A stretch of 64,000 bases of DNA from Thermodesulfobacteriota bacterium (GTDB lineage: Bacteria > Desulfobacterota_D > UBA1144 > Nemesobacterales > UBA2774), in NCBI GenBank assembly GCA_965216785.1, contig OZ244197.1, positions 1,728,001 to 1,792,000 on the forward strand, read 5' to 3'. A program made the translations under genes and the position numbers. The notes beneath the pieces were generated by a model that searched no databases, had not been told where the DNA came from, and saw only the letters and a program-made list of their open reading frames with translations. Below are positions 37,181 to 55,348 of the stretch, piece after piece. How positions within the stretch are numbered: the stretch's first letter is position 1; each line of letters opens with the position of its first letter.

Positions 37181-37335
37181 GAAATTTTATAGCTGGGTAT
37201 AAGCGTATTTTTTATCTGATTTTATGTAAGTGAGGTGGCGAAGCTGTGTCAACTATGGGGTTAAAGGTCAGTGGTTCTGACAAAGATAATAATAGGTGTG
37301 GTTACTTTCCTTTTAATTTATTCAGGGGGGGTATT

Positions 37336-38358
37336 ATGAATAAAAAAACATCATTTTTCATTTTTTTACTGGCAGCCATGATCACCGGGTGCGGCGGTGG
37401 AGGAGGGTCTGTAAATACTTCTCAGATGGCGCGCCAGGATTACGAGTCCTCTCAGGCGGTCGGTGATATTAATTCCAGGCTGCTTTCAATGGGATCGTCG
37501 AGGACAACTGAAACACTGCCGAGTTTGAAAGCGCCGGAAGGATATCTTATTGGTCCTGCGGACTTACTTGAAGTCAGGGTTTTCGAATCCGATAAGTTAA
37601 CTACTACCGTGAGGGTAAGTTCAAGGGGAGAGATCACGGTGCCTCTCCTTGACAATGTCTACGTTGACGGACTCACAGCAAGGGAAGCGGAGATCCGCTT
37701 AGAGAACCTTTTGAGGGATGGTGATTATATAGACAATCCTCACGTGGGAGTATTCGTAGTCGAGCACAAGAGTAAAGTTGTATCGGTAATGGGCTATGTA
37801 AATCAGCCTGGCAGCTATGAGCTTCTGGGCGGGCGGACTTTGCTGGATGTTTTAGCATCCGCGCAGGGGTTAAATGAAAAAGCCGGAACAACAGTATTTG
37901 TAACCAGAAGCCAAGAAGACGGGAGTAAAGATTCCTATCTTATAGATCTTGATGACCTTGTTAGCAGCGGCACCCCAGATAGCAATCTAGAGCTTAAACC
38001 CGGTGATTTGGTATATGTACCTGAAGCCGCAAATGTTTTTGTTGAAGGTGCTGTGCGCCAACCGGGCGCATATCCGATAAACGAGGGAAAAACTACCCTT
38101 ACCGAGGCTGTAATAATGGCCGGTGGGGTCGCGAGTATTGCTAATGACGATGTGACACTAATTCGTTATCTCGGCAACGGAAACAAAGAGGTCGTGAATC
38201 TTAATCTAGACAGTATCCAGTCGGGTCAAGAAAAAGACCCTATTCTAAATGAAAAGGACGCGGTTATCGTAGGAGCGAGCGGACTCAAGAGTTTTCTTTA
38301 CGGCTTTAAAATCAGCATATTCGGTTTGGGGGGAATTGGTTTCGATCCTCCCAATTAA
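37336..38358 (+). CDS. wza: Polysaccharide export lipoprotein Wza
   Basis: Lipobox ITGC, YLIGPAD, SLBB repeats. Confidence 0.9.
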   Translation: MNKKTSFFIFLLAAMITGCGGGGGSVNTSQMARQDYESSQAVGDINSRLLSMGSSRTTETLPSLKAPEGYLIGPADLLEVRVFESDKLTTTVRVSSRGEITVPLLDNVYVDGLTAREAEIRLENLLRDGDYIDNPHVGVFVVEHKSKVVSVMGYVNQPGSYELLGGRTLLDVLASAQGLNEKAGTTVFVTRSQEDGSKDSYLIDLDDLVSSGTPDSNLELKPGDLVYVPEAANVFVEGAVRQPGAYPINEGKTTLTEAVIMAGGVASIANDDVTLIRYLGNGNKEVVNLNLDSIQSGQEKDPILNEKDAVIVGASGLKSFLYGFKISIFGLGGIGFDPPN

Positions 38359-38389
38359 TTTAACTTAGGATTAACGGGAAAGAACAACT

Positions 38390-40705
38390 ATGGACGATAA
38401 GTTGAATGGAACGGGCAGGCAGATTACCGAAGTTGAGGTCATGGATTTAGATGACCAGCATAAAGACCAAAGACCTTCTTTAAATCAATCGGACTACGAT
38501 ATATACATTGAAGAATCGTCAGGTCTGAATGATTACATATATGTAATCAAAAGAAGAAAATGGGTCGTGTTGGCATGTCTTTTTATATCGATCTTCATTG
38601 TAGGCGTTGTAACCGTCATGATGGAGAAGATATATCAGGCTACGATAATGGTTGAAATTGCGCCTGAAAATCCTAAAGTAACAGGGTTTCAGGAGGTAAT
38701 GGATCTTCAAATACAGCAACAGGATGAGTTTTATGAGACTCAGTATAAGCTTTTGAAAAGCAGGTCTTTGGCTCTAGAGGTAATAAATGAATTAGACCTG
38801 AAATCACATCCTGAATTTGACGTCAACAAGAAGCCGGGAACGATAACTGTCATTAAAAATACAATCATTAATGCGATAAATAATGCTTTACCTTCAAAAA
38901 AAGATGAATACCCTGTTGAACAACATAAGGAGCTTTCCGAACAAGAAAAGCTGGTTTCCGCCTTCTTATACAGAGTAAAAGTTACTCCTGATAGAGACTC
39001 CAGACTGGTTCAAGTTAGTTTTGAGAGTGTGGATCCCAAACTTTCAGCCCTTGCTGTTAATACCCTGGCGGATCAATACATCGAGTGGGTACTGGAAAAG
39101 AAGCTTGGTGTTACAAAGTCTGCGGTTCAATCCCTTAGTAAACAGCTTAGTAAAGTTAAAGCGAAGCTTGAAAAAACTCAGGATGAGCTAAGCCAATTCG
39201 CAAAAAAATGGGATATTGTGTCTTTAGATAAGGATCTCAATCTTACCTACAAACAACTTGCCGATCTAAACAATGCGCTTGCGAAAGCGGAAACGGAAAG
39301 ACTCTCTCGGGAAGCCCTCTATGAAGAAGTGAAGGCTGGGAATTATGAATTATTACCGCAGGTGATAAATGATCCAACCATTCGTGCTCTTAAAACAGAG
39401 TATGTAAAGCTTAAATCTCAGTACGACCACCTCGATGCCAGATTTGGCCCGAATTACCCTGAAATGAAAGAATTAAGCGCTCAAGTCGCGAGGGTTCAAA
39501 GTGAGATACAAAGCCAGTTGGATGAAATTTCGCGAAGCATTAAAAAGGGCTACACAGCGTCTAAGAAATTGGAAGATATGCTAAGACAAAGAACTGATGT
39601 ACAGAAAACGCGCGCCGGGGAGCTAAATGAGCTGGCGACCCATTATCAAATGCTGGAGGGTGAGGTTGCTACGAATAAAGGTATATATCAGAATCTGCTC
39701 CAGCGACTTAAGGAAACAGAAGTAACATCGGGCATAAGAGCGACCAATGTACAGGTTATTGACTATGCGTTTCCCCCACTCAGCCCGTATAAGCCCAATC
39801 TATTATTCAATACCTTTATTGCTGCTGTCATGGGGCTTATGGCGGGAGTAATGCTGGCGTTTGGGTTCGAGCACTTTGATCAAACGATCCGTGATGAAGT
39901 AGACGTTAAAAAAAGATTGCCGATACCGTTTATGGGTAAGATACCGGCAGTAGAAAAAAGTGAGAGACGATCTCTTGAAAAGGTCGTTTATACAAACCCT
40001 CTGTCTAAAGTATCTGAAGCTTTCAGAGTGCTTAAAACTTCGGTCCTGTATTCATTGCGCGATCAAGGAACCCCTAAAGCACTTCTGGTAACAAGCACGC
40101 AGCCCCTAGAGGGAAAGACAACAGTGTCTTGTAATTTAGCCCTTACTATGGTTCAGTCGGGTTTAAGTGTAGTTTTGGTGGACGCAGATTTAAGAAGGCC
40201 GCGTCTTCACAACATTTTCTTGAAAAACGTCAAAAATGGGCATGGTTTGAGCTCGTACCTTAGTGAGGAGCCTGATTCCGATATTCCAAATATTATTTAT
40301 CCTTCTGAAATTAACGGACTGGATATCATTCCTGCAGGTCCAATTAAGCTCAATCCCGCCGATTTGATAGATTCTAAACGGATGAAAGATTTACTTGATA
40401 ATTTGGTCAAGAAATACGATCACGTAATTTTGGACAGTATTCCGGTAATGGAATTGGCCGACACGCGTCTTCTTTCAAGACAAGTTGACAGTGTTCTGCT
40501 TGTTGCTAGCGTAGGAATTGCGCGCAGGGAAGTGCTGCAAAACAGCGTGGAGGAACTTGTAAAAGTAGGGGCGAGGATTATAGGGGTTGTGATTAATAGA
40601 CTCGACTACGGCAGCAGGTATGGAAATGCGTATGACTACTATTATCTGTCAGAAGATGCTGAAAAGAAAAAGTTTAGTGGTGATAACTTATTTGATCGGT
40701 CATAG
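38390..40705 (+). CDS. wzc: Polysaccharide co-polymerase / tyrosine autokinase Wzc
   Basis: Two TM with coiled coil, STQPLEGKTT, VDADLRRP, C-terminal Tyr cluster. Confidence 0.93.
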   Translation: MDDKLNGTGRQITEVEVMDLDDQHKDQRPSLNQSDYDIYIEESSGLNDYIYVIKRRKWVVLACLFISIFIVGVVTVMMEKIYQATIMVEIAPENPKVTGFQEVMDLQIQQQDEFYETQYKLLKSRSLALEVINELDLKSHPEFDVNKKPGTITVIKNTIINAINNALPSKKDEYPVEQHKELSEQEKLVSAFLYRVKVTPDRDSRLVQVSFESVDPKLSALAVNTLADQYIEWVLEKKLGVTKSAVQSLSKQLSKVKAKLEKTQDELSQFAKKWDIVSLDKDLNLTYKQLADLNNALAKAETERLSREALYEEVKAGNYELLPQVINDPTIRALKTEYVKLKSQYDHLDARFGPNYPEMKELSAQVARVQSEIQSQLDEISRSIKKGYTASKKLEDMLRQRTDVQKTRAGELNELATHYQMLEGEVATNKGIYQNLLQRLKETEVTSGIRATNVQVIDYAFPPLSPYKPNLLFNTFIAAVMGLMAGVMLAFGFEHFDQTIRDEVDVKKRLPIPFMGKIPAVEKSERRSLEKVVYTNPLSKVSEAFRVLKTSVLYSLRDQGTPKALLVTSTQPLEGKTTVSCNLALTMVQSGLSVVLVDADLRRPRLHNIFLKNVKNGHGLSSYLSEEPDSDIPNIIYPSEINGLDIIPAGPIKLNPADLIDSKRMKDLLDNLVKKYDHVILDSIPVMELADTRLLSRQVDSVLLVASVGIARREVLQNSVEELVKVGARIIGVVINRLDYGSRYGNAYDYYYLSEDAEKKKFSGDNLFDRS

Positions 40706-40840
40706 GAGTTTTTATTTCAACAATGCCGCTATCTATGGCCCATAGCTGTGCTGGTTTTCCTGAAGATCAAATTCAAGTGGCTTTGCCTTCGATCGATACC
40801 TGATTTAACTCATTTAAAAAAATTACAGGAGGTGTGGACA

Positions 40841-41197
40841 ATTAATATCAACGATATTAAAAAAGTTCCAAAACCCTGGGGACATGAAATATGGTGGGCC
40901 CAGACTGATAATTACGTGGGAAAGATCCTGCATGTTAAGAAAGGGCAGGCGTTAAGCTATCAATATCATGAGGTTAAGGATGAGACTATTTATCTTTACA
41001 GTGGCGAAATTTCCCTGCAGATAGAAGAAGTCGGTAAAGCGAAAGAGGAAATTACTCTTTCTCCCGGTGAGTCTGTAAGAATAAAACCGCTCACTAAGCA
41101 CCGCATGATAGCGAAAGAGGATTGTGATTTATTAGAGGTATCCACACCTGAAGTCGAGGACGTGGTGAGATTGGAAGATAGATACGGCAGAGTATGA
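40841..41197 (+). CDS. Cupin protein (mannose-6-phosphate isomerase type II C-terminal-like)
   Basis: KPWG.E, LSYQYH..KDET, HRM, EVSTPE..DVVRLEDRYGR; start uncertain (ATT 40841 vs GTG 40748). Confidence 0.8.
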   Translation: MNINDIKKVPKPWGHEIWWAQTDNYVGKILHVKKGQALSYQYHEVKDETIYLYSGEISLQIEEVGKAKEEITLSPGESVRIKPLTKHRMIAKEDCDLLEVSTPEVEDVVRLEDRYGRV

Positions 41198-41316
41198 AGA
41201 ATCCTCGAAGCAACTCTCTTACTCTAGCGTTATGTTAATACTTCGCTTAAGAGCTGTCTAACCATTAGGAGAGTTCCAATTACAACTTCAATAGGGTTTT
41301 GAAATCGTGAATAATC

Positions 41317-42825
41317 ATGAACTTGCTTAATTTAAAAACACAGGAGCGCCACTCAAAAGTGGTTTTTTACAATCGTGCCGAGGAGGGTTGGCAATGGGCG
41401 AATACCGCCAACTTATTAATTGATATCTTTTTTATCCTCCTCAGCACTACACTTGTTTTCTATGTGCGGTTTTCGCACGAGCTATATGTCTACGGAGCTG
41501 ACGGGAAATTCGACGGTATTATCAATACCGGAGTATTTTCAATAACTAATTATGATTTATTTTCTAGTTACATAGGGTTTCTTGTTCTATATCTTGCTTT
41601 TATAGTCCTGCTATTTAAGAACTATGAGCTCTATTCCACGAGTTTGGCCAGGTCATGGATAGATGAAGCGCTGTTAGTGTTCAAGAGTGTCTCCATAGCT
41701 ACGCTCATAATGATGGTGGTCATGTATTTGGCAAAGCAGCAGGTTTCCCGTTTCGTTGTTCTTTTTAGCTGGGCAACCAACATACTGTTGCTGGCGGGAT
41801 GGAGATACGTCGGACACACAATGCTTCAAAGGCGTGTAAAAAGTGGCGACGGGTTGAGAAGGGTTCTTATTGTTGGTGCCGGTAGAGTAGGGCGGAAGCT
41901 CGCTGAGATGCTTGAAAACAATAAGCATTTGGGGCTGGAGGTAAAGGGTTTTGTTGATGATTTTAAACTGGGCAAGGGGATTTTAGGCCGGATAAGTGAT
42001 ATGCCGCAGATATTAAGGGGCCAGTTTATTGACGAAGTGTATGTCACAATACTTTCCGAGAGAGAACTTGTTAAAACTGTTACCAAAGAGGCACTTATAC
42101 ATAAAGCCGACGTAAAGGTAATACCGGACCTTCTTGACGGCATCGTCCCACAGAGCCGCCCACTTTCGCTCGGATTCCTCGGCGACTTGCCCGTAATGGA
42201 AATATACCGAAAGCCCATACCGGAACTTGGCCTTTTCATTAAAAGGGCAATAGATCTCGTATGCGGTTTTTTTATGTTTTTGCTCACGCTGCCGGTTCTG
42301 ATAGTTGTTGCCATCATAATTAAAATAGACTCTCCGGACGGCCCTATTATCTATCGCTCCAAACGAGTAGGAAAGAAAGGCGCATTCTTTTATTGCTACA
42401 AATTCCGCACGATGTCTGCGAACGCGGACGATCTTAAGGACAAACTCAGAGAGCTCAATGAGAGAAGCGGTCCTTTTTTCAAGATCACTGATGATCCGCG
42501 TATTACGAGAGTCGGGAGATTTTTAAGAAAGTACAGCCTGGATGAACTGCCCCAGATGTTTAATCTAATTAGCGGGGATATGAGCCTGGTTGGGCCAAGA
42601 CCTCACCCTCTCGATGATTTTGATCTCTATGATCTTGAAGATTATAGGAGACTCGATGTAAAACCGGGGATAACGAGTCTTTGGGCCGTGGAGGCGAGAA
42701 ACGATCCTTCTTTTGAACGGAATATGGAGCTCGATCTGTACTACATTGAGAACTGGAGTATATGGCTTGATATAAGAATTCTTCTTAAAACAGTTCCTAC
42801 GGTGCTAAAAGGTTCCGGCATCTAA
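41317..42825 (+). CDS. Priming polyprenyl glycosylphosphotransferase (WcaJ/WbaP family)
   Basis: TM region, Rossmann-like GAG, KFRTM, DPRITRVG.FLRKYSLDELPQ, MSLVGPRP. Confidence 0.95.
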   Translation: MNLLNLKTQERHSKVVFYNRAEEGWQWANTANLLIDIFFILLSTTLVFYVRFSHELYVYGADGKFDGIINTGVFSITNYDLFSSYIGFLVLYLAFIVLLFKNYELYSTSLARSWIDEALLVFKSVSIATLIMMVVMYLAKQQVSRFVVLFSWATNILLLAGWRYVGHTMLQRRVKSGDGLRRVLIVGAGRVGRKLAEMLENNKHLGLEVKGFVDDFKLGKGILGRISDMPQILRGQFIDEVYVTILSERELVKTVTKEALIHKADVKVIPDLLDGIVPQSRPLSLGFLGDLPVMEIYRKPIPELGLFIKRAIDLVCGFFMFLLTLPVLIVVAIIIKIDSPDGPIIYRSKRVGKKGAFFYCYKFRTMSANADDLKDKLRELNERSGPFFKITDDPRITRVGRFLRKYSLDELPQMFNLISGDMSLVGPRPHPLDDFDLYDLEDYRRLDVKPGITSLWAVEARNDPSFERNMELDLYYIENWSIWLDIRILLKTVPTVLKGSGI

Positions 42826-42890
42826 ACGGCTATTTATTTCACCGCCTGAAAATCTATGTCTATCACAAAAGTTAACTGCTGACAGCTCAA

Positions 42891-44213
42891 ATGCGCAATC
42901 TGCTAAAAAATATCCGTTTCGGCATATCCAGTACTATTGGCAAGAACATTATATCTCTGTATTTGCTGCAAATATCCTACTATGTTCTACCCCTTATTAC
43001 TGTTCCATATCTTGTCCGCGTGTTAGGGCCGGAGAAGTTCGGTCTCGTTGCTTTCGGGCAAAGTCTTATAACATTTTTCGTATTATTTGTTAACTACGGT
43101 TTCGATCTCACGGCGACAAGAGAGATTTCGGTAAAGCGCAAGAGCAATAAAGATGTGAGCGTTATTTCATGCAGTGTGTGGATTGCGAAACTCCTTTTAG
43201 GCTTAATTGGTCTGTCGGTGCTTTTATTGTTGATTCGTTTTGTGCCTAAAATGAATCAGAACTCTGTCCTCTTACTAATTCTATTCGGAATTGCCGTTGG
43301 AAATATGCTGTTCCCCAACTGGCTTTTCCTCGGACTTGAGAGGATGAAGGCTATATCGGTAATTAACATGTCGATGCGCGCGGTAACTACCGCGGGGGTT
43401 TTTATTCTTATTCGAAACCCCGATGATTACTTGATATATGCAGGGCTTCTTTCGTTTCAATGGGTGTTTGCGGGAATATTGGGCATCGTCTTTGCAATCG
43501 TAAGATTAAAAATCCGTATAAGTGTTCCAAAATCCCATGAAGTAACTCAAGTTCTGTCCAAAGGGTGGACACTGTTTTTATCGAACATAGCTCAAAGTAT
43601 TTATTACTCCGGAAATAGCTTCATTTTGGGAATGTTAACAAATTACACGGTAGTTGGATATTACAGCGCGGCTGAAAAAATTACCCTTTCGCTTTTGGGT
43701 TTGTTCAGGCCGGTAGCGCTGGCTGTCTACCCGAGGTTAAGCCGTATAGCTTCTTCTTCCAAAAACACAGTTCTTTTCTGGAGCAGAAGGCTGATATTTG
43801 TAATGGGCGGCTTGGGTTTGGCGGCTTCACTCACAATGTTTTTCGGCGCGCCTTTGATTGTGAAGATAATTTTAGGATCCGGATACGGACCTTCAATAAT
43901 CGTCCTTCAGGTTCTGTCCCTGCTGCCGTTTATTGTGGCCCTGTCAGATGTGTTGAGCATCCAGATCATGCTCCCATTCAGTAAAGACAAATTCTATACC
44001 ATGATTAGAGTGTTTACGGCTTTTTTACACATTTTGCTCGCGTTATTGCTCGTTCCGAGGTTTAATGAAGCGGGTATGGCCGCGACTTTAGTCTCAAGTC
44101 AGGCATTCATACTTATTTCTACTTTTCTATGTTTATCATACTGGAAGCTTAGCCCCCTGCATTACAAAATTGAAGAGAATATTCCCCACAGCCCTGCTAA
44201 CTCAAAAACCTAA
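42891..44213 (+). CDS. wzx: Wzx flippase
   Basis: PLITVPYLVRVLGPE.FG, about 12 TM, VGYYSAAEK. Confidence 0.9.
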   Translation: MRNLLKNIRFGISSTIGKNIISLYLLQISYYVLPLITVPYLVRVLGPEKFGLVAFGQSLITFFVLFVNYGFDLTATREISVKRKSNKDVSVISCSVWIAKLLLGLIGLSVLLLLIRFVPKMNQNSVLLLILFGIAVGNMLFPNWLFLGLERMKAISVINMSMRAVTTAGVFILIRNPDDYLIYAGLLSFQWVFAGILGIVFAIVRLKIRISVPKSHEVTQVLSKGWTLFLSNIAQSIYYSGNSFILGMLTNYTVVGYYSAAEKITLSLLGLFRPVALAVYPRLSRIASSSKNTVLFWSRRLIFVMGGLGLAASLTMFFGAPLIVKIILGSGYGPSIIVLQVLSLLPFIVALSDVLSIQIMLPFSKDKFYTMIRVFTAFLHILLALLLVPRFNEAGMAATLVSSQAFILISTFLCLSYWKLSPLHYKIEENIPHSPANSKT

Positions 44214-44524: not shown

Positions 44525-44545
44525 ATTATAGCTTTAATATCGGGG

Positions 44546-44573
44546 CCGGGTTTTTATCTAGACAAAACCCCGG
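44546..44573. terminator. Imperfect GC-closed hairpin inside EPS locus
   Basis: CCGGGTTTTT-ATCTAGAC-AAAACCCCGG; no U-tract on +. Confidence 0.35.
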
Positions 44574-44678
44574 GCAACTAAAATCGGAGAAAATAATATT
44601 GTATAAAAATCTTATCAATAATGATATCGGGAAGATGCATGAATCAGCTCGGGGCGGTAAGGACGGAGTAATACTTCA

Positions 44679-45893
44679 ATGAATAGGCAAAATTTATCAA
44701 ATATAAAAGTCGCGTGGCTTATCCCTTCTATGGCAAGGGGATTTACTTGGCAGCCGCTGCTGAAGGCATTCGCCAGTTTATTTCCGGACTCTATGGTTTT
44801 TACGGGTCTTTGGCCGATAAACCGGTCCACGGAGAACGTTGATTTCAACCTTAATGTTGTCGGAAAAACCAGGTTTTTAACTATAGACAAGGACAGCTCG
44901 AATTACGCCAGAGGAATAATAATGCCTCCGTTAAGGATTATTCTTCATTTATTGAAATACTTCCCGGACGTCATATTGGTATATGGGTTTTCACTATGGA
45001 CAGTAATTGTGGTGCTACTCAAACCGTTTACAAGATGGCGTGTAGTAATCGTATATGAAGGTAGTACCCCAACCGTGGATGCAAAGGAATCGAAGTTTCG
45101 GATCTCCGGGCGTAAACTGATGAGCAGATTCTCAGATGCGTTTATAACAAATTCTCACGCCGGTAAGGACTACCTGGCTCAATTTCTGAAAGCGAAAAGA
45201 GAGCTCGTTTTCGTGCGTCCCTACGGGGTTCCCGATAAAGAATATCTGTCCCTCAAAAAGGTGAATGTAAAGCCTTTAATCAAAGGTGTGAAGCGGCCCA
45301 TATTCCTTTACGCCGGTCTTTTAATTGAGCGTAAGGGTATCAAATTCCTCCTGCGCGCCCTCGCCGTCTTAAAAAGAGAGGGATGCGATAATTTCACGCT
45401 TATGGTTGTCGGGGACGGTCCGCAGCGAGAGGAGCTTGAGGGTATTGTAAGTGAAGAGGGTATGGAAAAACAAGTCAAGTGGATGGGGTGGGTGGATTAC
45501 AATAGCCTCGGATATTATTTTGATTCTTCAGATGTCTTTGTCTTTCCGACGTTTGAGGATACTTGGGGTTTAGTTGTACTTGAGGCAATGAGTTTTGCTA
45601 AGCCTATTGTGTGCTCTGAATTGGCAGGAGCGATGGAAATGGTCAAGAATGAAGAAAATGGTTTCACCTTTAACCCTGCCAATGGCAAACCTGAAGAACT
45701 GTCGGGAATTATTAAAAAATTTATAGATGACCCGAATCTTATAAAACGTATGGGGGAGAAGTCAAAAAAAATGGCATCGTCTCATACCCCTGAAATAGTT
45801 GCGAATGACCTCAAATACATAATAGAGTTTGTTTTAGGCAGGAGGGAAAGGGGTTCAATGGAGTTTAAGGAATATCAACAGGAGCAAACTTGA
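44679..45893 (+). CDS. GT4 glycosyltransferase
   Basis: G.LIERKG, VGDGP, DTWGLVVLEAM. Confidence 0.92.
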   Translation: MNRQNLSNIKVAWLIPSMARGFTWQPLLKAFASLFPDSMVFTGLWPINRSTENVDFNLNVVGKTRFLTIDKDSSNYARGIIMPPLRIILHLLKYFPDVILVYGFSLWTVIVVLLKPFTRWRVVIVYEGSTPTVDAKESKFRISGRKLMSRFSDAFITNSHAGKDYLAQFLKAKRELVFVRPYGVPDKEYLSLKKVNVKPLIKGVKRPIFLYAGLLIERKGIKFLLRALAVLKREGCDNFTLMVVGDGPQREELEGIVSEEGMEKQVKWMGWVDYNSLGYYFDSSDVFVFPTFEDTWGLVVLEAMSFAKPIVCSELAGAMEMVKNEENGFTFNPANGKPEELSGIIKKFIDDPNLIKRMGEKSKKMASSHTPEIVANDLKYIIEFVLGRRERGSMEFKEYQQEQT

Positions 45894-45937: not shown

Positions 45938-48478
45938 ATGAACATATATCAGGACGTCGAAAGAATTTTGAGCGATACGGAGTATGCTGTCCTACACGGA
46001 TGGCAATCGCTTCCCGATCACCATGAGTCTGATCTGGATATTGTAATCAATCCAGATCATTTGAACTTGCTGGAAGAATCGCTGGTTGATTTTAAACCGG
46101 CGAAACTCGTGCAGCTGCTTCAGCACGAATCTTCCTGCTTCTATTTTATATTGGCACATAAGAACGGGAACGGAATGGAATTTCTGCAGGTCGACGCTGC
46201 CACGGATTATAGAAGAAACGGGCTTACTTATTTCTCCGCAGAGGAGTTAAACCGCGCAAGAAAGCAATGGAAGGGGTTCTGGGTAACTTCTCCTGAAACG
46301 GAGCTTGCCTATCTACTTGTAAAGAAAACACTTAAGGGCGAAACACCGGGACATCAAAAGAAAAGACTCGAGTATTTAGTTGATAAGCTTGGGGTGCAAA
46401 GATCCACAGCTATATCAACGGAGCTTTTCGGTAAGGAATCGGGACAAAGGGTAATATCCTGGATCTCTAATAGTAACTGGAGCGTTCTTGAGTCAAATGT
46501 GCCCGGATTAAAAAGGTCGCTTATGTTCGAAGCAGTAAAAAAAGACCCGTTAAACCCTCTGACATATTGGCTTGGCGAAGCAAAACGTATTGTAAGAAGA
46601 TGGCTCTATCCAACAGGGTTGTTTATAGCAGTGCTCGGCCCAGACGGGGTGGGGAAGAGTACTTTGATCGAAAGTATCGAAGCACAGCTCTCAGGAGCGT
46701 TTCGCCGCAGCGCGAATTTCCATCTAAGACCGGGACTTATTGGTAGAAACGATCAAGGCGCGCCTGTAACCGACCCTCATGGAAAGCCGCCGCGTTCATT
46801 TTTGGCCTCTATTCTGAAAATCGCTTATTACTTCTGCGATTACGCGCTTGGCTTTGTATTAAAACTTTATCCTAAAATTGTACGATCGACCCTGGTGATA
46901 TTTGACAGGTATTACGACGATTTGCTGGTTGACCCAGCGCGCTATAGGTATGGAGGTCCTTCCTGGCTCGTTAAATTCACGCGTCGTTTTATCCCCAGGC
47001 CAGATTTGTTCTTGATCCTTGACGCTTCCGAAGACGAGCTTCTTAAACGAAAGCAGGAAGTGGGTAAGGATGAGTTAACACGCCAGCGAAAGGCGTATAG
47101 GGATCTTGCGGCTGGGCTTCCAAACGCATTTGTCCTGGATGCAGGTCAAAGCCCTGAAAAACTTGCCGATGACGCTTCGGAAATCGTGTTGGATTATCTG
47201 CACGGACGCTACATGGGGCGCCGGAATTTGTTTTTCAAAAACGATGATACAAACAAGACTCTCGCCTGGTTAAACGCGGCTTTGTCGGCAGATACCGATA
47301 GGTCGTACTTAGCTATATCGGACCTTGAACGAGAAGTTGTGAGGCCAGGTTGGGAAAATTATTATGAATTCAATTACTTGCCAATTAATAACGGCAGGGG
47401 GTATTTACTGCCTGTAAACTCTAAAGCCGCAGCGAACGGCCTTTCGTTATATAACGCACAGAGCTTGAGCGCAAGGGCAGTCAAATCAGCGCTAAAAAAA
47501 CCTTACCTAAGCGCTGTTGGCAACGTATTTATGAAATCCATAAATTTAAAGATAAAAAAGGGTATTAGTTGCGAAGAGAAGAGCGAAGTCCTGTTGTTTG
47601 AGTATTTAAAGGAAGCTCTTGGAGAGAAAAAGCTTGATTTTGCCGTTTCCCTTGGAACCCCGGGGCCCCATAGAAAACCGGTAATTCAATTAACTAACGC
47701 AAATGATACCGTAATTGGCTATGCAAAAGTCGGATGGAACGGGGTTACGAATTCGCTTGTGAAAAATGAAGCCGATACGATAAACGATCTATCGAGGAAC
47801 TCTTTTCACTCTTTATGTATACCTTCTCTACTGCACTCCGGATGGTGGGATAACCGCTACTTGACCATACAATCTTCGCCAAAGGGTAATCTCTCGCCAG
47901 CACCTAAGAGCCTTACTTCACACTATTTGAATGTGGTCGAGGAGTTAGCGGATCTGAACTTAAAATATATGCCTATAAAAGAGAGCGCTTTTTGGACAAG
48001 TCTTTTAGATAACTTAAAAAATGTCAAAGGCGGTTTCTACCTCGGCGTTTTAGAGCGAAAAATTATACCTAAGGTAGATGAGAGCTTCGGCGATACGCCG
48101 CTCCCGTTTCATATGTCTCACGGAGACCTAGCTCCCTGGAATGCATATATCAAAGATGAAATGCTCTATCTCTATGACTGGGAATATTCCCGTCCGGACG
48201 CGCCAGGAGGCTGGGACTTGTTTCATTTTAGTACTCAGAGCAATCTACTTCTCAAAAATAGAAATTCCGGCGAGCTCTGTAAAACAATCATAAACGATGC
48301 TTACAGCAGTTTGACAAAACCATATTGGGATAAGCTTGGAATCAGTAAAAACGCCCTCAGCACGCTTTTCGTTTTATACATCCTAGAAAGGCTTTCAATC
48401 GCCGCTTCTGAGGGGGCGGAGAGCTCTCACGAAATTAGTCAGTTCTCAAAGATGATCAATGTCTTAGTCAATTCCTAA
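45938..48478 (+). CDS. Tri-domain nucleotidyltransferase-like / thymidylate-kinase-like / APH-type phosphotransferase protein
   Basis: SDLDIV near the N-terminus; GPDGVGKST and FDRY centrally; HGDLAPWN and DWE at the C-terminus. Confidence 0.75.
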   Translation: MNIYQDVERILSDTEYAVLHGWQSLPDHHESDLDIVINPDHLNLLEESLVDFKPAKLVQLLQHESSCFYFILAHKNGNGMEFLQVDAATDYRRNGLTYFSAEELNRARKQWKGFWVTSPETELAYLLVKKTLKGETPGHQKKRLEYLVDKLGVQRSTAISTELFGKESGQRVISWISNSNWSVLESNVPGLKRSLMFEAVKKDPLNPLTYWLGEAKRIVRRWLYPTGLFIAVLGPDGVGKSTLIESIEAQLSGAFRRSANFHLRPGLIGRNDQGAPVTDPHGKPPRSFLASILKIAYYFCDYALGFVLKLYPKIVRSTLVIFDRYYDDLLVDPARYRYGGPSWLVKFTRRFIPRPDLFLILDASEDELLKRKQEVGKDELTRQRKAYRDLAAGLPNAFVLDAGQSPEKLADDASEIVLDYLHGRYMGRRNLFFKNDDTNKTLAWLNAALSADTDRSYLAISDLEREVVRPGWENYYEFNYLPINNGRGYLLPVNSKAAANGLSLYNAQSLSARAVKSALKKPYLSAVGNVFMKSINLKIKKGISCEEKSEVLLFEYLKEALGEKKLDFAVSLGTPGPHRKPVIQLTNANDTVIGYAKVGWNGVTNSLVKNEADTINDLSRNSFHSLCIPSLLHSGWWDNRYLTIQSSPKGNLSPAPKSLTSHYLNVVEELADLNLKYMPIKESAFWTSLLDNLKNVKGGFYLGVLERKIIPKVDESFGDTPLPFHMSHGDLAPWNAYIKDEMLYLYDWEYSRPDAPGGWDLFHFSTQSNLLLKNRNSGELCKTIINDAYSSLTKPYWDKLGISKNALSTLFVLYILERLSIAASEGAESSHEISQFSKMINVLVNS

Positions 48479-48492: not shown

Positions 48493-49725
48493 ATGCAGAA
48501 AAAACTCAAAGTGTTGGTATCCGCATATGCGTGTGAGTCCGGAAAGGGTTCTGAGCCCGGAGTAGGATGGAACTGGGTAAAACAAATTGCCCGCTTCCAT
48601 GAAGTTTGGGTGATAACACGCTCAAGCAACCGCGAATCCATAGAGTGTCAACAGAGCGGGGATTCTTCCAATATTCATTGGGTGTATTTTGATTATCCCC
48701 CATGGCTCAGGTCTTGGAAGAGGGGGCAGCGCGGAGTCCATCTGTATTACTACTTGTGGCAGATAGCCGTTTATTTTATGGCGAGGCGGATACATAAAGA
48801 AGTTAAATTCGACATAGTACATCATTTAACCTTCGGAGTTTACTGGCTTCCGAGTTTTCTATCTCTTATCCCAGCGGCTTTTATACACGGCCCGCTCGGT
48901 GGAGCTGAAAGAACGCCTAGGGAGTTTTACAGGAGTTTCAGTTTAAAGGGGAAGATTTATGAATGGCTCAGGGATACTGCAAGGTGGTTTGGCGAGAAAG
49001 ATCCTTTCGTGCTGTTAAGTATCAGGAGGGCAAAACTGGTACTTGCTAAAGTACAGGAAACGGGCGACCGTCTGTCTGTGCTCGGGGCAAAAGAAGTGCT
49101 GGTTTTCCCGGAGTCTGGTATCAGCGTAAAAGAAATTGAAAAACGCGCTGTGATAAAAGAGTCAGAATCCAAGAACTTTAAATTTATTAGTATAGGCCGC
49201 TTACTGCACTGGAAAGGTTTTCATCTGGGACTTTCGGCGTATTCGAGGTTCGTTAAGGAATTTCCTTCAAGCGAGTATTGGTTTATCGGTAACGGTCCGG
49301 AGCGGCAGAATTTGCAACTTTTGGCGGAGAAGCTGGGTGTTTCGGACAAAGTAAAGTTTTTTGATGAATTACCTCACGATCAAGTTTTAGAAACGTTGTA
49401 TGAGTGTGATGTATTAGTACATCCGAGTATCCACGATTCAGGCGGGTGGGTGTGTCTTGAAGCAATGGCTTTCGGAAAACCGGTTTTGTGTCTTGATCTG
49501 GGCGGACCGGCCATGCAGGTAACCGAAGAGACAGGATTTAAGGTTCCCGCGAAAAACCCGGAGCAGTCTGTCGAAGATCTTAGGAGCGCGATGATTCGGC
49601 TTGCCGGAGATTCCGGACTCGGCAGAACAATGGGCGAAGCGGCCCGCGAAAGGGTACTAGAGCATTTTGAATGGGATAAAAAGGGCGAGTGGATAAATAA
49701 AATTTATCAAGAAGCGATGATTTAA
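48493..49725 (+). CDS. GT4 glycosyltransferase
   Basis: SAYAC...GSEPG.GW, GRLLHWKG, DSGGWVCLEAM. Confidence 0.92.
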   Translation: MQKKLKVLVSAYACESGKGSEPGVGWNWVKQIARFHEVWVITRSSNRESIECQQSGDSSNIHWVYFDYPPWLRSWKRGQRGVHLYYYLWQIAVYFMARRIHKEVKFDIVHHLTFGVYWLPSFLSLIPAAFIHGPLGGAERTPREFYRSFSLKGKIYEWLRDTARWFGEKDPFVLLSIRRAKLVLAKVQETGDRLSVLGAKEVLVFPESGISVKEIEKRAVIKESESKNFKFISIGRLLHWKGFHLGLSAYSRFVKEFPSSEYWFIGNGPERQNLQLLAEKLGVSDKVKFFDELPHDQVLETLYECDVLVHPSIHDSGGWVCLEAMAFGKPVLCLDLGGPAMQVTEETGFKVPAKNPEQSVEDLRSAMIRLAGDSGLGRTMGEAARERVLEHFEWDKKGEWINKIYQEAMI

Positions 49726-51219
49726 ATGAATGTAAAAAGAAAACAGACCGATTTCAAGTTCCTCATAGTTGTTCTTGCCGCGGTGTTGCCGATAAGCCTT
49801 TGTATCCTGCTTATATCGAACAGGTTCGATAACTATGTGCTCCTTATCGCCGCTTTGGGATTACCGGCGGGGCTTCTGACATTAAGAGCACTATTTGTCT
49901 CTAGCCTAAGGTTAAAAGTATTAATTTCCCAACTCCGCTGGTGGCATTTGCTCTGGTTTCTAGTCTTATTAAGCGGGCTTGTTTTTCGAATCAGAAATAC
50001 ATATGAAGCTCAAGACAGTCCGGTCGACTTTTGGGCTCTGTTTAGAATGGGGATTATGGGTTTTGTAGGTTTTGTGCTTTTAGTCAGATTAGCGATGAAA
50101 AAAACCAACTGGTTAACTACACTTTTCCAAGGCTCAATAGGTCTTTTGGCAGCATATGCCGTAGTTGCCATAATGTCTACACTGTGGTCGATTTACCCTT
50201 TATGGACATTATATAAATCTGTTGAGTATTTGATTGATGTAGTCCTTATTGCGGCAATAGTAGCCTCGGCCAGATCGATAAAAGATTATAAGATGCTGTT
50301 TGACTGGACTTGGTTTTTGTTAGGTTTACTTGCCGCCAGCGCCTGGCTTGGCATTTTAATATGGCCGGATATCGCAATTCGTCAGGACGTCGGTGTTCTG
50401 GGCGGCCAGCTTGCCGGAGTGATGCCCGCCATGGAAACAAATAAGGTTGGAGAGCTAGGGGCTATATTGGGCATTGTGGCGTTAAACCGGTTTTTATTCA
50501 TGAAAGATCGCAGGTTTTATTTTGTTATTTTCCTGGTAGCAATGGCCACCATGATATTTGCGCAGAGCCGCTCGCCTATAACCGGTTTTCTGGTGGCTTT
50601 GCCATTGATGTTGTTCGCGGCAAGAAGGATCGGGCCGATCGCTCTCACGCTTATGGTGATGTTCTTTTTACTTTTCCTTACAGGTGTTACAGATGTATTT
50701 TGGGAATATTTTCTCAGAGGACAGAGCAGAGAGGAGTTTTCTTCTCTATCCGGAAGGACGTACGGGTGGGTGCTTGGGTGGGAGCTCTTTAAGCTCAATC
50801 CGCTGCTGGGATTCGGCGCGTACGCGGGGGGGAGATTCGCGGTGCTTACCGAGCTTGGTACGAACATGAGCTCGGGGCAGTGGTCTTCTATTCTTAATAC
50901 ATGGCTGGAAATCCTCATAGGCGTTGGGTTGATGGGAATATTCTTCGTCATAGCGGCATTTATTAAAACATGGGCGAATATCATAAAAGGTACTATCTCG
51001 AGCGAGGCGGGTTCTATCTATCATTGTTTAGCCGTAGAAGCGATAGGAGTTCTCGCGCTTATCTCCGTACGCTCGATGTTCACTACAAATATCTTTTGGC
51101 ATCCCCCGTTGATCTTTCTCCTTATAGTCGGGTACGGCGAGTTTTTGTACATGTATTACAGACGGGCAAAAATTAGGCAAAGAAAAGCATCCCACAGCAA
51201 ATCTTTAGCAACCACATGA
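49726..51219 (+). CDS. Wzy polymerase / O-antigen ligase family
   Basis: Multi-TM, QSR, LSGRT..W, NPLLGFG. Confidence 0.82.
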   Translation: MNVKRKQTDFKFLIVVLAAVLPISLCILLISNRFDNYVLLIAALGLPAGLLTLRALFVSSLRLKVLISQLRWWHLLWFLVLLSGLVFRIRNTYEAQDSPVDFWALFRMGIMGFVGFVLLVRLAMKKTNWLTTLFQGSIGLLAAYAVVAIMSTLWSIYPLWTLYKSVEYLIDVVLIAAIVASARSIKDYKMLFDWTWFLLGLLAASAWLGILIWPDIAIRQDVGVLGGQLAGVMPAMETNKVGELGAILGIVALNRFLFMKDRRFYFVIFLVAMATMIFAQSRSPITGFLVALPLMLFAARRIGPIALTLMVMFFLLFLTGVTDVFWEYFLRGQSREEFSSLSGRTYGWVLGWELFKLNPLLGFGAYAGGRFAVLTELGTNMSSGQWSSILNTWLEILIGVGLMGIFFVIAAFIKTWANIIKGTISSEAGSIYHCLAVEAIGVLALISVRSMFTTNIFWHPPLIFLLIVGYGEFLYMYYRRAKIRQRKASHSKSLATT

Positions 51220-51223
51220 TCTC

Positions 51224-52132
51224 ATGAATATCAGCAAAAAAATTAGAAAAATTTATCATCAGATTAAAACAGTAAAACTCTATAATGACTCAAGAGATGA
51301 CCTGTCAATGGAAAAAGTGGAAAGGACATATGAATTTAAATCCCATGCGTTGGGACAGCAAATATTTTGCCCGTATTGCAATGGAGAGACCGTGATACAT
51401 TGGGAAAGTCTAAGTTTTTGGAAATGTTTGTCATGCAGCCTGGTCTTTCGTTTTCCCCTGCCTGACGGGCACAGTGTGGTAGAGCTGTATGAGGACAGCT
51501 GGAACGCTCCTTTTGAGAATAGGAGTGAGACTGGAGGGACCTCTCTTGATCTTGCGGTTGTCTACGCAAGGAAACTGGCGGACACCCTGGAGCTCAAGGA
51601 CTTCAAGGGGCTCAGGATCCTTGATTTTGGAGCCGGAAGGGGCGATGCGATGACTGCGCTATCCAGGCTGGGAGCCGACGTGTACGGGGTAGAGCCGTTT
51701 GGATACGAGGGTCTTGTTGAGAGGGGATTTAAGATGTTTCGGTTCCTGGATGATATTCCTGAAGGGATGACTTTTGACGGCATTATTACAATGGATGTGG
51801 TTGAGCACCTCACGACTCCCTGGGTTGAATTAAAGGGACTTAATAGTTTACTGAATAAAGATGGTTTTCTTTATATATCAACACCCAACGCCGATTCGCT
51901 AAGAGCGGTAGTCGAGCGTGAGAAATGGAGGGAAGCTTTAAGACCCGGCCATTTTGTGCTTTTTAACCAGAATTCTCTTGAGAACATGTTGGCAGACTTA
52001 GAATTTAAGAACATAAAGAGGCTCAGGTGGTATTTAAAGTACAATGAAAATAAAATTCATAATTTTTTGGGCTATATGCTGCAAACCGTTGGTATAGATG
52101 GTGAGCTGCGTTATTTAATAAGGAAATCATGA
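51224..52132 (+). CDS. Class I SAM-dependent methyltransferase
   Basis: N-terminal CxxC..CxxC, LDFGAGRG, DVVEH, STPN. Confidence 0.88.
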   Translation: MNISKKIRKIYHQIKTVKLYNDSRDDLSMEKVERTYEFKSHALGQQIFCPYCNGETVIHWESLSFWKCLSCSLVFRFPLPDGHSVVELYEDSWNAPFENRSETGGTSLDLAVVYARKLADTLELKDFKGLRILDFGAGRGDAMTALSRLGADVYGVEPFGYEGLVERGFKMFRFLDDIPEGMTFDGIITMDVVEHLTTPWVELKGLNSLLNKDGFLYISTPNADSLRAVVEREKWREALRPGHFVLFNQNSLENMLADLEFKNIKRLRWYLKYNENKIHNFLGYMLQTVGIDGELRYLIRKS

Positions 52133-53331
52133 GAGTACTCGTCGTACATAATTTTTATCAGCAGCCAGGTGGTGAGGATACGGTGTTTTCAGCCGAAACG
52201 GACCTTCTTCGCCGGCATGGTCATGAGGTTATTGAGTACACGGAAAGTAACGACAGTGTTAATTCCATGAATACCCTGAGTGCAGCCGTAAATACTATAT
52301 GGTCGCACCGCTCAAAAAGAAAGATGATTGATATTCTCGATAGGGTTAAACCAGATGTGGTGCACTTTCACAATACGTTTTTGCTCATATCTCCGTCCGC
52401 ATATTACGCGTGCAAAGAAAAGAACGTGCCGGTAATACAATCACTTCACAATCCAAGGCTGCTCTGTCCGGCTGCTAATCTTTACCGAGACGGAAAGGTA
52501 TGTGAGGACTGTGTGGGTAAAACTCCCCCGTGGCCCGGTGTGATACACGGGTGTTACAGGGACTCTAGGGCTCAAACCGCTATAGTCTCGACGATGCTGA
52601 CGCTGCACCGGATGCTCAAGACCTGGGATAAGGTCATAGATACTTTTATCGTATTTACCGAATTTTACAGAAAAAAGTTTATCCAAGGTGGGCTCCACTC
52701 TGAAAAGATTGCTTTAAAGCCCCACTTTGTCGATCCCGACCCGGGCTGCCGAAATGGTGAAAAAGGGGACTACGCGCTTTACATCGGTAGACTCGATAAG
52801 GAAAAGGGGATCCCGACATTACTCAAGGCCTGGCGGAACACCGACGACGTCCCGTTAAAAATAAGGGGTGACGGGAATCTTCTGGGTGAGGTTAACGATT
52901 ATATTAGCCGGAACGAAATTAAATCTGTCGAAATTGTAAAACGGCTTGAGAAGCTAGAGCTAAACGAGTTAATCAAAAAGGCCAGATTTTTGGTCTGGCC
53001 GTCTGAAGGTTATTACGAAACGTTCGGTTTAGTGGCAATAGAGGCGTTTGCCTGCGGCGTGCCGGTGATTGCTTCAAGGACCGGGACTTTAGCGGAAAAT
53101 GTAACGGACGGGTACACGGGACTGCACTTTGCCCCGGGCGATGTAGAGGATTTATCCGCGAAAGTAAATTGGGCATGGAGTAACCCGGACAAGATGGCAA
53201 AGATGGGTAGGGCCGCAAGAAAAGAATATGAAACTCATTATACGGCAGAGAAGAATTACAGGATGCTGCTCGATATATATGAAAGAGCGATTAGTGGTAA
53301 ATCATCCGGCGGCAAAGTGCATTTAGCCTGA
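52129..53331 (+). CDS. GT4 glycosyltransferase
   Basis: HNFYQQPGGED, GRLDKEKG, ETFGLVAIEA. Confidence 0.92.
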   Translation: MRVLVVHNFYQQPGGEDTVFSAETDLLRRHGHEVIEYTESNDSVNSMNTLSAAVNTIWSHRSKRKMIDILDRVKPDVVHFHNTFLLISPSAYYACKEKNVPVIQSLHNPRLLCPAANLYRDGKVCEDCVGKTPPWPGVIHGCYRDSRAQTAIVSTMLTLHRMLKTWDKVIDTFIVFTEFYRKKFIQGGLHSEKIALKPHFVDPDPGCRNGEKGDYALYIGRLDKEKGIPTLLKAWRNTDDVPLKIRGDGNLLGEVNDYISRNEIKSVEIVKRLEKLELNELIKKARFLVWPSEGYYETFGLVAIEAFACGVPVIASRTGTLAENVTDGYTGLHFAPGDVEDLSAKVNWAWSNPDKMAKMGRAARKEYETHYTAEKNYRMLLDIYERAISGKSSGGKVHLA

Positions 53332-53486
53332 ACTTCCTGAAACATCAATAAACTGACTGATTCTTAGGTCAGGGTTATCAAATCTGAACATATAAACATA
53401 TAAATCACGTGGAGAATCGGAAATTGTATATTCCCGTTCTTCTCAGTCCCATTGGTTGATAATGAGCTAAATGAGGAAGAAATTCA

Positions 53487-54254
53487 ATGAGCGAAAATAA
53501 GTGCGATAGTTACAAAATACTGGGCGTTAATGTAGCCGCGGTCCAGATAAGCGACGTAATCGGGCAGATGGACGAGTGGATAGAAGAGAAGAGCTTTGGG
53601 CATTATATCGCGGTCACGAATACGCATGTTGTGACCGAATCCTGGTTCAACCCGGAATATAGGAAAGTTCTAAATACGGCCGATTTTGTTGTTCCCGACG
53701 GAATGCCTTTGGTTTGGCTGGCGAGGTTGGGTGGATATCCCCTCAAACGCCGGGTTTACGGTCCGGAACTTATGGAAACTTTCATTAAAGAAAACGGCCG
53801 GAAGCGCCGGCACTTCATCTACGGAGGTAAGCCCGGCACGCCCGAGAGGCTTATAGAAAATCTATCGGAAAGCTATCCGGGGATACATTTTGTCGGCAGT
53901 TATTCACCCCCGTTCCGTCAGTTAACCCAAGAGGAGGACAGGGAAGTTGTCGACATGATAAACGATCTTGAGCCCGACGTCATTTGGGTAGGTCTTGGAG
54001 CGCCGAAGCAGGAAAAATGGATGCACGATCACAGACACTTAATTCAATCGCCGATTATGGTGGGGGTCGGGGCGGCATTTGATTTCCTGGCTGGCGAGAA
54101 ATCACAGGCCCCTTCATTCTTCAGGGAAAACGGTTTTGAATGGTTATGGCGCTTGATGAGCGAGCCCCGCCGCCTTTGGCGCAGATACCTTGTCTACGGA
54201 CCGCTTTTTATAGGTTTGGTAATGCTTGAGAAAATGAGAATTTTAAAAATTTGA
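53487..54254 (+). CDS. WecB/TagA/CpsF-family (GT26) glycosyltransferase
   Basis: PDGMP, RVYGPEL, GLGAPKQE, GVGAAFDF, EWLWRL..EPRRLWRRY. Confidence 0.93.
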   Translation: MSENKCDSYKILGVNVAAVQISDVIGQMDEWIEEKSFGHYIAVTNTHVVTESWFNPEYRKVLNTADFVVPDGMPLVWLARLGGYPLKRRVYGPELMETFIKENGRKRRHFIYGGKPGTPERLIENLSESYPGIHFVGSYSPPFRQLTQEEDREVVDMINDLEPDVIWVGLGAPKQEKWMHDHRHLIQSPIMVGVGAAFDFLAGEKSQAPSFFRENGFEWLWRLMSEPRRLWRRYLVYGPLFIGLVMLEKMRILKI

Positions 54255-54298
54255 GACTAAATAACTGAAATCGAGTGGATTTCGGGAGGAGTAAGATC

Positions 54299-55348
54299 AT
54301 GAAAAAAAAGATCCTCATTACGGGAGGCAGCGGCTTTATCGGCTCCCATTTATGCGAAAGGTTACTAGCTGAGAGAAACGAAGTAATCTGCGTGGATAAT
54401 TTTTTTACTGGAACAAAATACAACATTAAGGATATGCTGGGGAATCCGTATTTTGAGCTTGTTCGGCATGATATATGTTTTCCCCTATATATGGAAGTGG
54501 ATGAAATATATAACCTTGCCTGTCCTGCTTCTCCCATCCACTATCAATTTGACCCTGTACAAACGACAAAGGTAAACGTGCTCGGAGCCATAAATATGCT
54601 GGGTCTGGCCAAAAGACTGAAGGTAAAGATTTTTCAGGCCTCAACCAGCGAGGTTTACGGTGACCCCGCTGTTCATCCTCAACGTGAAGAGTATTGGGGG
54701 AATGTAAATCCCATCGGTACCAGGTCATGTTACGATGAAGGGAAAAGATGCGCGGAAACCCTGTTTTTCGATTACAACCGCCAGCACGGGATAGATATCA
54801 GAGTGGCCAGGATTTTCAATACTTACGGCCCCAGAATGCATCCCCGAGACGGCAGGGTGGTTAGCAATTTCATCATACAGGCCCTATTGGGGAACCCCAT
54901 AACTATTTACGGACAGGGGCTTCAGACAAGGTCTTTTTGTTACGTTGACGATCTGGTTAAAGGCATTATCGGCCTGATGAACCTGCCCGAAGGGTTTACG
55001 GGGCCTGTCAACATTGGAAACCCTGTGGAGAAAACCATAATCGAGCTTGCGGAAAAGATTATCGATCTGACAGGTTCTCGATCAGAGCTCGTTTTTCAAC
55101 CGCTGCCCGCCGATGATCCCGTAAGGAGAAAACCGGATATCCAACTTGCAAACGAAAAACTTGATTGGGCGCCCGAGGTTGATCTTGAGACAGGGCTTAC
55201 AAAAACAATCGAGTATTTTGATGAGTTTCTCCGCTCGAGCAAAGGACAGGACATTGTTGATACTCAAGGAGAACAAACGGACGGGAAGTGGAGACAAAAA
55301 AATATAAACGCTATTCCGTTAAAGGAATCTGCGACGACCGCGTCTTGA
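54299..55348 (+). CDS. UDP-glucuronate decarboxylase (UDP-xylose synthase)
   Basis: [42 protein letters not shown]. Confidence 0.93.

Follow-up and report, generated by a model that had tools for sequence, protein, structure and literature searches.

What is made by a protein that joins the motifs of a nucleotidyltransferase, a thymidylate kinase and an aminoglycoside phosphotransferase (APH)-type kinase in one chain and is encoded among glycosyltransferases? The question is raised by an 846-residue open reading frame (ORF) in a stretch of 64,000 nucleotides from a Thermodesulfobacteriota bacterium (assembly GCA_965216785.1, contig OZ244197.1, positions 1,728,001 to 1,792,000), referred to below as the window. 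An earlier note on this DNA, made from the sequence alone, compared the protein with the phosphocholine (Lic) pathway and proposed a one-protein assembly line that phosphorylates, activates and possibly transfers a substituent onto a polysaccharide. The analysis reported here indicates that the protein belongs, together with the adjacent glycosyltransferase, to a real, widespread and uncharacterised module, which would extend the known ways in which nucleotide activation serves glycan synthesis. The parts of the module, all on the + strand, are the following.

45938..48478, +, three-domain protein of 846 aa consisting of nucleotidyltransferase (NT), thymidylate kinase (TMK)-like and APH/choline-kinase-fold kinase domains (ORF, homolog alignment)
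45938..46603, +, NT domain of the Pol-beta superfamily, aa 1-222 (structure model, conservation)
46610..47227, +, TMK-like P-loop kinase domain, aa 225-430 (PF02223, 35.6 bits; TIGR00041 below cut-off)
47336..48475, +, APH/choline-kinase-fold kinase with a family-specific N-terminal extension, aa 467-846 (structure model)
48493..49725, +, GT4 glycosyltransferase "GT4a", the co-inherited fourth member of the module

A fusion of three intact enzyme domains

The five motifs on which the earlier note was based all lie where it had placed them: SDLDI at aa 31 (nt 46028), GPDGVGKST at aa 234 (nt 46637), DRY at aa 323 (nt 46904), HGDxxxxN at aa 728 (nt 48119) and DWE at aa 747 (nt 48176). The five patterns occur together in none of 5000 shuffles and in 1 of the 408 ORFs of at least 500 aa in the genome. 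A Pfam scan of the query assigns the middle domain to PF02223 (cut-off 27 bits) and, at E<=0.01, yields no match for the first or the last domain. Because 112 full-length homologs with 37-85% identity align with the protein (112 of 120 listed matches; the self-match and 7 partial ones were left out), the fusion is real, and an assembly artefact is ruled out as its source. The closest named homolog (85% identity) comes from a Candidatus Dadabacteria genome. In the resulting alignment of 113 sequences, D86, G234, D236, K240, D323, R324, K597, E611, D747 and E749 are invariant. Larger sets of 283-467 domain rows, which were not dereplicated, give the same picture among non-gap rows: D34 in 433/433, D86 in 438/441, K240 in 461/461, R324 in 464/466, K597 in 280/282 and D747 in 278/278. 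Together with confident models for the NT and kinase domains, which have the Pol-beta NTase and the APH fold, respectively, and with the PF02223 match of the middle domain, these residues bear out the three folds that had been read from the motifs, so that the protein is predicted to comprise three intact enzyme domains.

The nucleotidyltransferase domain

The first domain is left unnamed by Pfam, NCBIfam and PDB sequence searches. Its model (residues 1-225, pLDDT 96.9) adopts the Pol-beta NTase fold, and its closest structure matches are MenT1 (Z 11.3, rmsd 3.6, 161 residues aligned) and ANT(2'') (Z 10.8, rmsd 3.3, 148 aligned), followed by JHP933 (Z 10.0), TglT (Z 9.5) and LnuA (Z 8.8). Foldseek agrees: all 10 listed matches (E<=0.001), as well as the top 8 VIA rows, are NTases. 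The domain carries the Pol-beta signature, G...DxD (G21, preceded by H20, with D32 and D34) and a third carboxylate, D86, and three lysines, K129, K130 and K133, lie on the helical subdomain. Thus, ANT(2'')-Ia, LnuA and MenT/TglT resemble the domain over its entire length (Z 8.8-11.3), in the G..DxD motif with the third Asp and in the helical-subdomain lysines; however, they share 9-15% identity with it and function in resistance or toxin-antitoxin contexts, whereas the module is found in the context of polysaccharide synthesis. ANT(2'') and LnuA transfer a nucleoside monophosphate (NMP) to sugar hydroxyls.

Several other Pol-beta families were considered. LicD also is a Pol-beta-fold protein. 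The LicD-type protein FKRP matches the domain with Z 5.1, in the background range, and the Pfam scan of the query gives no LicD match; for its relatives, the listing covers 25 of 54 families. The family PF14907 (NTP_transf_5), to which PsmN belongs, does not match the query domain, and 4 of 104 relatives match it weakly (best E 0.0041); in the Atlas, the domain has a lead (0.89) to a cluster of which 13% is PF14907. The 50 VIA rows listed for the domain do not include Tam41, whose Pol-beta fold serves to cytidylylate a phosphate; this leaves room for a relation.

The thymidylate kinase-like domain

The middle domain shares with thymidylate kinases the fold, the acidic P-loop (D236, K240), the DR motif (D323-R324) and the lid arginine (R371). 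The differences are an altered base and sugar site (K294, Y302, D328, D332, P333), an additional invariant His, Pro-His and Arg, and the constant tie to an NT or kinase domain. The genome encodes a canonical Tmk (171 bits) elsewhere, and alignment of the module to this enzyme, anchored on the DR motif, gives the replacements E63-K294, R71-Y302, H74-G305, S97-D328, Y101-D332 and Q102-P333. From Tmk structures, we take the replaced positions to be those that bind thymine and, through a Tyr, exclude the 2'-OH of ribose, and the retained residues to be those that bind the acceptor phosphate. Because the thymine-binding and ribose-excluding positions are replaced, an acceptor other than dTMP is indicated; judging from these residues, a phosphomonoester that carries a ribose-like diol is the likely acceptor.

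That the protein is an ordinary dTMP kinase, or a second copy of one, which has acquired accessory domains and provides the dTDP of dTDP-sugars, might be suggested by the PF02223 score above the cut-off, by the label "thymidylate kinase" that many homologs carry in databases (JGI, NCBI; others are labelled "hypothetical") and by the presence of rfbABCD in two plasmid loci. This explanation is very improbable given that the dTMP-kinase equivalog model TIGR00041 scores 31.9 bits against a cut-off of 83.25, that thymine- and deoxyribose-site residues are replaced, that the genome has its own Tmk and that the complete module is present in just 6 of 61 related genomes. A housekeeping Tmk is rejected on the first three of these grounds, in agreement with the earlier note, which had also named the dTMP kinase as the finding that would undo its proposal. 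Given the occurrence in 6/61 genomes, the module is accessory. The retention of the phosphate-binding residues along with the loss of the ribose-excluding Tyr fits an NMP kinase and thereby points to a reaction in the pathway that releases NMP.

The kinase domain

The model of residues 467-846 (pLDDT 93.6) has the APH fold, with K597, E611, H728-G-D730, N735 and D747-W-E749 corresponding to the APH catalytic Lys, Glu, HxDxxxxN and DxE. Choline/ethanolamine kinases (Z 16.4-17.3), LicA (Z 16.8), fructosamine kinases and APHs are tied as its structure matches at Z 16-17, and pneumococcal LicA is the nearest solved sequence and the best non-TMK match of the profile (E 8.9e-7). At E<=0.01, PF01636 does not match the query, but it matches many homologs. 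At the position of the choline-site Glu, 100 of the 113 sequences have Gln (Gln767); because this Gln replaces the residue that binds choline in choline kinases, choline is disfavoured as the substrate. As a side observation, a second glycan cluster of G000, which lies beyond the window, encodes a protein of 560 aa (C1, 3098588-3100267) whose kinase domain is a distant one (45 bits), and similar kinases of 580-650 aa adjoin polysaccharide deacetylases in loci L097-L101.

The Lic pathway (LicA-LicC-LicD) comprises a kinase, nucleotide activation and phospho-transfer to a glycan (PMC10434233). The module appears to follow the same logic, and its kinase matches LicA in both sequence and fold. This part of the earlier comparison stands; the remainder does not, given that the NT domain is nearer to ANT(2''), LnuA and MenT than to FKRP, that Gln767 takes the place of the choline-site Glu, and that the module has an NMP kinase and a dedicated GT4, both absent from the Lic pathway. 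Furthermore, Pfam scans of 52 representatives of neighbour clusters (E<=1e-5) and of 78 of the 91 near neighbours outside these clusters (E<=1e-9) detected no LicB (transporter), LicC (cytidylyltransferase) or LicD. Because none of the three travels with the module, the comparison is limited to the logic and the kinase fold.

A different possibility is that the kinase and NT domains modify GT4a, a flippase or each other, in the manner of toxin-antitoxin NTases. MenT1, TglT and MenT4 are among the top structure matches of the NT domain, i.e., its fold is that of MenT/AbiEii-type toxin NTases, and fusions of the module to flippases (see below) might be interpreted in the same way. However, the kinase resembles small-molecule kinases (Z 16-17) far more closely than protein kinases (Bud32, Z 10.5; Rio2, Z 9.6), no antitoxin family was detected in the Pfam scans of the neighbours (PADLOC was not part of the search), and the NMP-kinase domain would have no role. 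A regulatory function of this kind is improbable.

A co-inherited glycosyltransferase

As the earlier note had recognised, the protein is encoded among glycosyltransferases: it is part of a Wzx/Wzy polysaccharide operon with three GT4s and sugar-nucleotide genes, and its direct flanks are GT4s.

36599..44213, +, start of the Wzx/Wzy locus: NusG-like antiterminator, Wza, Wzc, cupin, WcaJ-type priming transferase and Wzx flippase
44679..45893, +, upstream GT4 glycosyltransferase, a variable neighbour (14/80 loci; absent from the G004 locus)
49726..55348, +, rest of the recurrent cassette: Wzy-type polymerase, methyltransferase, GT4 "GT4b", WecG/TagA-type glycosyltransferase and NAD-dependent epimerase/decarboxylase

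A survey of the best 80 of at least 268 confirmed genome loci shows that the three domains recur together, and adds the downstream GT4a, a co-inherited neighbour that the earlier note had not mentioned. Within 10 kb of the module, GT4a is found in 65 of the 80 loci, compared to 49 for WcaJ, 48 for GT4b and 46 for WecG. From the 15 loci without a nearby GT4a, 10 genomes were searched, and 8 of these encode it elsewhere; in G318, G321 and G322, it adjoins a displaced kinase. Plasmid loci have GT4a in all 3 cases examined (of 8 matches), despite the different other glycosyltransferases. Among the 61 related genomes, GT4a is present in 7, namely all 6 with the module and G059, where NT-TMK is lost and GT4a has an in-frame stop. 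In a separate sample of 251 Acidobacteriota genomes, for which 3 module candidates per genome were scored and absences of the module were re-tested genome by genome, 7 of 10 non-seed GT4a-like matches belong to genomes without the module. The link between the module and GT4a is thus one-way.

In a midpoint-rooted tree of 78 rows (fragments of less than 300 residues left out), 69 GT4a sequences, all from module-bearing loci and most of them picked for their proximity to the module, form a clade with local support 0.99, and the 7 module-less ones fall outside; module-linked L103 is placed among these 7, and L094 is unplaced. Module-linked and module-less GT4a differ at approximately 19 conserved positions. 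When tree distances are compared across 31 loci (6 loci with fragments were dropped; the split-half ceilings are 0.72-0.87, and the pairs are not independent), NT, kinase and GT4a agree with one another at 0.68-0.79, and with GT4b or WecG at 0.25-0.41. A variable substrate seems to be common to kinase, NT and GT4a, whereas the part played by the TMK-like domain, which is tied to NT, seems to concern a nucleotide portion that stays constant. Searches of Pfam, NCBIfam and PDB sequences identify no characterised ortholog of GT4a; its best NCBIfam match is the Myxococcus-type EpsH (118 bits vs 800). In L041 and L047 (12541-15108), L063 and L068, two copies of GT4a are present, either fused in tandem into one two-domain protein or encoded by separate genes.

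GT4a has the look of an ordinary GT4, including a D-x7-E motif and the Arg/Lys that binds the donor, which is compatible with the idea that the module makes a private donor for it: the kinase would phosphorylate a sugar or cyclitol, NT would produce an NDP-derivative, and GT4a would transfer it, with the TMK-like domain adding a second phosphate to the sugar phosphate or to the 3'-OH of the activated donor. The positions distinctive of module-linked GT4a, the use of NTPs by the structural neighbours of NT, and the fold shared with anomeric kinases (N-acetylhexosamine kinase, Z 14.5; maltokinase, Z 13.4) are consistent with this idea, although the anomeric kinases score below choline, fructosamine and aminoglycoside kinases. 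Precedents exist as well. In acarbose synthesis (PMC9200736), AcbU, AcbR and AcbS act in the same order, kinase, nucleotidyltransferase and dedicated (pseudo)glycosyltransferase, on an unusual sugar analogue; in that account, however, AcbR resembles glucose-1-phosphate adenylyltransferases rather than Pol-beta enzymes, and genes for cyclitol synthesis are present, whereas none are found near the module. Likewise, according to PMC11800397, a kinase, a nucleotidyltransferase and a second kinase encoded by Cj1415-Cj1418 of Campylobacter jejuni make CDP-phosphoramidate 3'-phosphate, the donor of the capsular O-methyl phosphoramidate, but there the transferase is separate and the capsule is exported by an ABC system. 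What chiefly argues against a private donor is that no conserved nearby gene would supply an unusual sugar, that a glycosyltransferase releases NDP and would leave the TMK-like domain without its canonical job, and that related GT4s function without the module in 7 genomes. On balance, this possibility is the main alternative to the phosphodiester scheme described below, but is doubtful. For all three steps, the Cj1415-Cj1418 proteins belong to families different from those of the module.

Distribution and architecture of the module

The NT-TMK profile retrieves 3177 clusters (50% identity) at E<=1e-30, with named records from Acidobacteriota, Bacteroidota and Rhodothermia, Pseudomonadota, Cyanobacteria, Verrucomicrobiota, Chloroflexota, Spirochaetota, Bacillota and Dadabacteria. 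In the 80 loci, the most common arrangement is NT-TMK with a separate kinase (47 loci), followed by the triple fusion (18), NT-TMK without a kinase in the DNA covered (11), TMK-kinase (3, one at a contig end) and one other. For 8 of the 11 kinase-less loci, the genome was searched, and in 7 a kinase is encoded elsewhere. In Hymenobacter, the domain order is kinase-NT-TMK. The one-protein form of the proposed assembly line is therefore incidental, since the split form is more common than the triple fusion.

In eight cases (L029, L063, L071, L078, P0298, P0307, P0317, P0319), the module is fused to a flippase, and in L050 to a hexapeptide acetyltransferase. The flippase family is found in 50 of the 80 loci, a circular count inasmuch as its model was derived from the same loci. 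An obligate flippase partner is rejected, since the family also occurs without the module and differs from the type encoded in the window.

Two further arrangements are worth recording. In L012 (523-3598) and L022 (2550-5491), two genes are adjacent, one that encodes NT and in which the TMK P-loop has decayed, and one in which the TMK domain is intact, apparently a duplication followed by reciprocal loss. In L105 (12126-14004) and L048 (6126-8906), both without an NT domain, a 245-aa S-adenosylmethionine (SAM)-dependent methyltransferase is encoded in the gap between flippase and kinase; the pairing of methyltransferase and kinase is reminiscent of WbdD-type methyl-phosphate capping.

Predicted reactions and related systems

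From the observed folds, catalytic residues and co-inheritance, we infer a set of reactions, with their order and substrates, in which the three domains and GT4a would constitute an optional four-activity unit of Wzx/Wzy loci that installs a phosphodiester decoration on the lipid-linked repeat unit before export. GT4a would add or define the sugar to be decorated. The APH-fold kinase would use ATP to place a phosphomonoester on a sugar-like hydroxyl, and NT would activate this phosphate with an NTP, with release of pyrophosphate. The activated group would then be joined to a second hydroxyl on the lipid-linked unit, yielding a phosphodiester and a ribo-NMP, which the TMK-like domain would re-phosphorylate. 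The joining step is proposed because there is work for an NMP kinase only where a reaction sets NMP free, and the lipid-linked stage because the module is fused to flippases. The Pfam scans of the neighbours reveal no conserved gene for substrate synthesis, transport or cytidylyl transfer; of the 80 loci, 2 have RfbF-like transferases, and methyl-, acetyl-, pyruvyl- and sulfotransferase tailoring genes differ between loci. The absence of a conserved supply, transporter or cytidylyltransferase gene nearby fits housekeeping substrates, and a scheme that uses them is the simplest. We tentatively favour the phosphodiester scheme, while considering its chances to be somewhat short of even.

A number of observations weigh against this scheme. 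No separate joining transferase was found near the module, so either one domain would have to catalyse two reactions or GT4a would have to perform the joining. Recycling of NMP is a weak reason for the near-invariance of the TMK-like domain because cells already have NMP kinases. The tree distances of this domain track those of the other parts poorly (0.20-0.33), although they are narrowed by the retrieval of loci partly on TMK motifs. Incomplete sets exist: G326 has NT-TMK and the kinase but no GT4a, G320 has NT-TMK alone, G236 and G287 lack the kinase but encode TMK-like or divergent NT-TMK proteins, and G059 and L048 retain the kinase after the loss of NT. The flippase family of the fusions is also fused to a different GT4 in 4 loci, and the flippase of the window is of another type (33 bits). 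Finally, the surveyed loci were picked by similarity to the query, which biases both the linkage counts and the tree distances.

The nearest experimental precedent is, by analogy, PsmK/PsmN of the lasso peptide pseudomycoidin. According to PMC6993621, PsmN, modelled on ANT(2''), needs its DxD motif to put a hexose on the phosphate made by the kinase, and its chemistry is left unresolved. The module has the same pairing of a kinase with an ANT(2'')-like DxD NT, and the ANT(2'') entry 4xje is among the top NT matches; however, PsmK is of the HprK type and acts on a peptide, and the cluster as described there has neither an NMP kinase nor a GT4.

The match of NT to ANT(2'') and LnuA, which modify sugar hydroxyls directly, also brings up a relay, in which the kinase would produce an X-monophosphate (X being nucleoside-like or a polyol), the TMK-like domain the X-diphosphate, and a host kinase or the same kinase the X-triphosphate, whereupon the ANT/LnuA-like domain would put X-monophosphate on a hydroxyl of the sugar added by GT4a. 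Such a relay needs only enzymes that are already present, and the altered base site suits a non-standard X. Conversely, nearby genes offer no source of X, co-variation of the TMK-like domain with the kinase is missing (0.21) although both would bind X, and we know of no polysaccharide that bears a group of the X-monophosphate type; the relay is accordingly unlikely. In more general form, a decoration route that dispenses with a CDP carrier, where two kinases would make the di- or triphosphate of a non-standard nucleoside or polyol and NT would transfer the monophosphate to the sugar set by GT4a, is rather unlikely.

Full-text literature searches, for which subscription papers mostly and supplements entirely were beyond reach, returned no description of the module, one unrelated phytoplasma paper being the sole match, in line with the earlier note, which knew of no characterised enzyme with such an architecture; the accessible text of a paper on Curvibacter exopolysaccharide mentions no kinase.

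Other genes of the locus

Between the flippase and the upstream GT4, the operon contains a 465-base gap (44214-44678) without an ORF of 100 aa; at this place, G019 has an extra glycosyltransferase-like gene. The cassette is followed by a second optional block (55374-63332, +) that is kept in G007 and G019 and is absent from the G004 locus. It encodes a GT2, a glucose-1-phosphate cytidylyltransferase (above cut-off), an epimerase, a C-methyltransferase, an APH-type kinase, a 354-aa protein without a Pfam or NCBIfam match and an alkaline phosphatase, and, from these predicted functions, resembles a pathway to a CDP-branched sugar that includes a kinase of its own. That second kinase (59506-60600) was considered as a paralog of the module kinase and rejected (hhalign probability 3.6).

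Elsewhere in the window, a 1375-aa ORF (70-4197, +) presumably encodes a malate synthase-isocitrate lyase fusion-like protein, judging from what we take to be an isocitrate lyase motif; such fusions are found mainly in eukaryotes. The genes at 23705-27758 presumably encode an archaeal-type SAM synthetase, a protein-isoaspartate methyltransferase, a YbaK-like protein and a release-factor-like protein.

Implications

The NT-TMK family is large and spread over many phyla, yet databases list its members as thymidylate kinases or hypothetical proteins. The four-part definition (NT, TMK-like domain, kinase, GT4a) and the availability of cultured carriers, including Microbulbifer guangxiensis, Devosia elaeis, Rhodothermus bifroesti, Leisingera and Hymenobacter swuensis, make the module directly testable. 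If the CDP-carrier-free route were true, nucleotidylated or unprecedented phosphodiester exopolysaccharides would be made in thousands of lineages. If the module installs a phosphate-linked group, it would alter the charge of biofilm and capsule polymers through a modification not described so far and would represent a new use of the Pol-beta and TMK folds in glycan synthesis.

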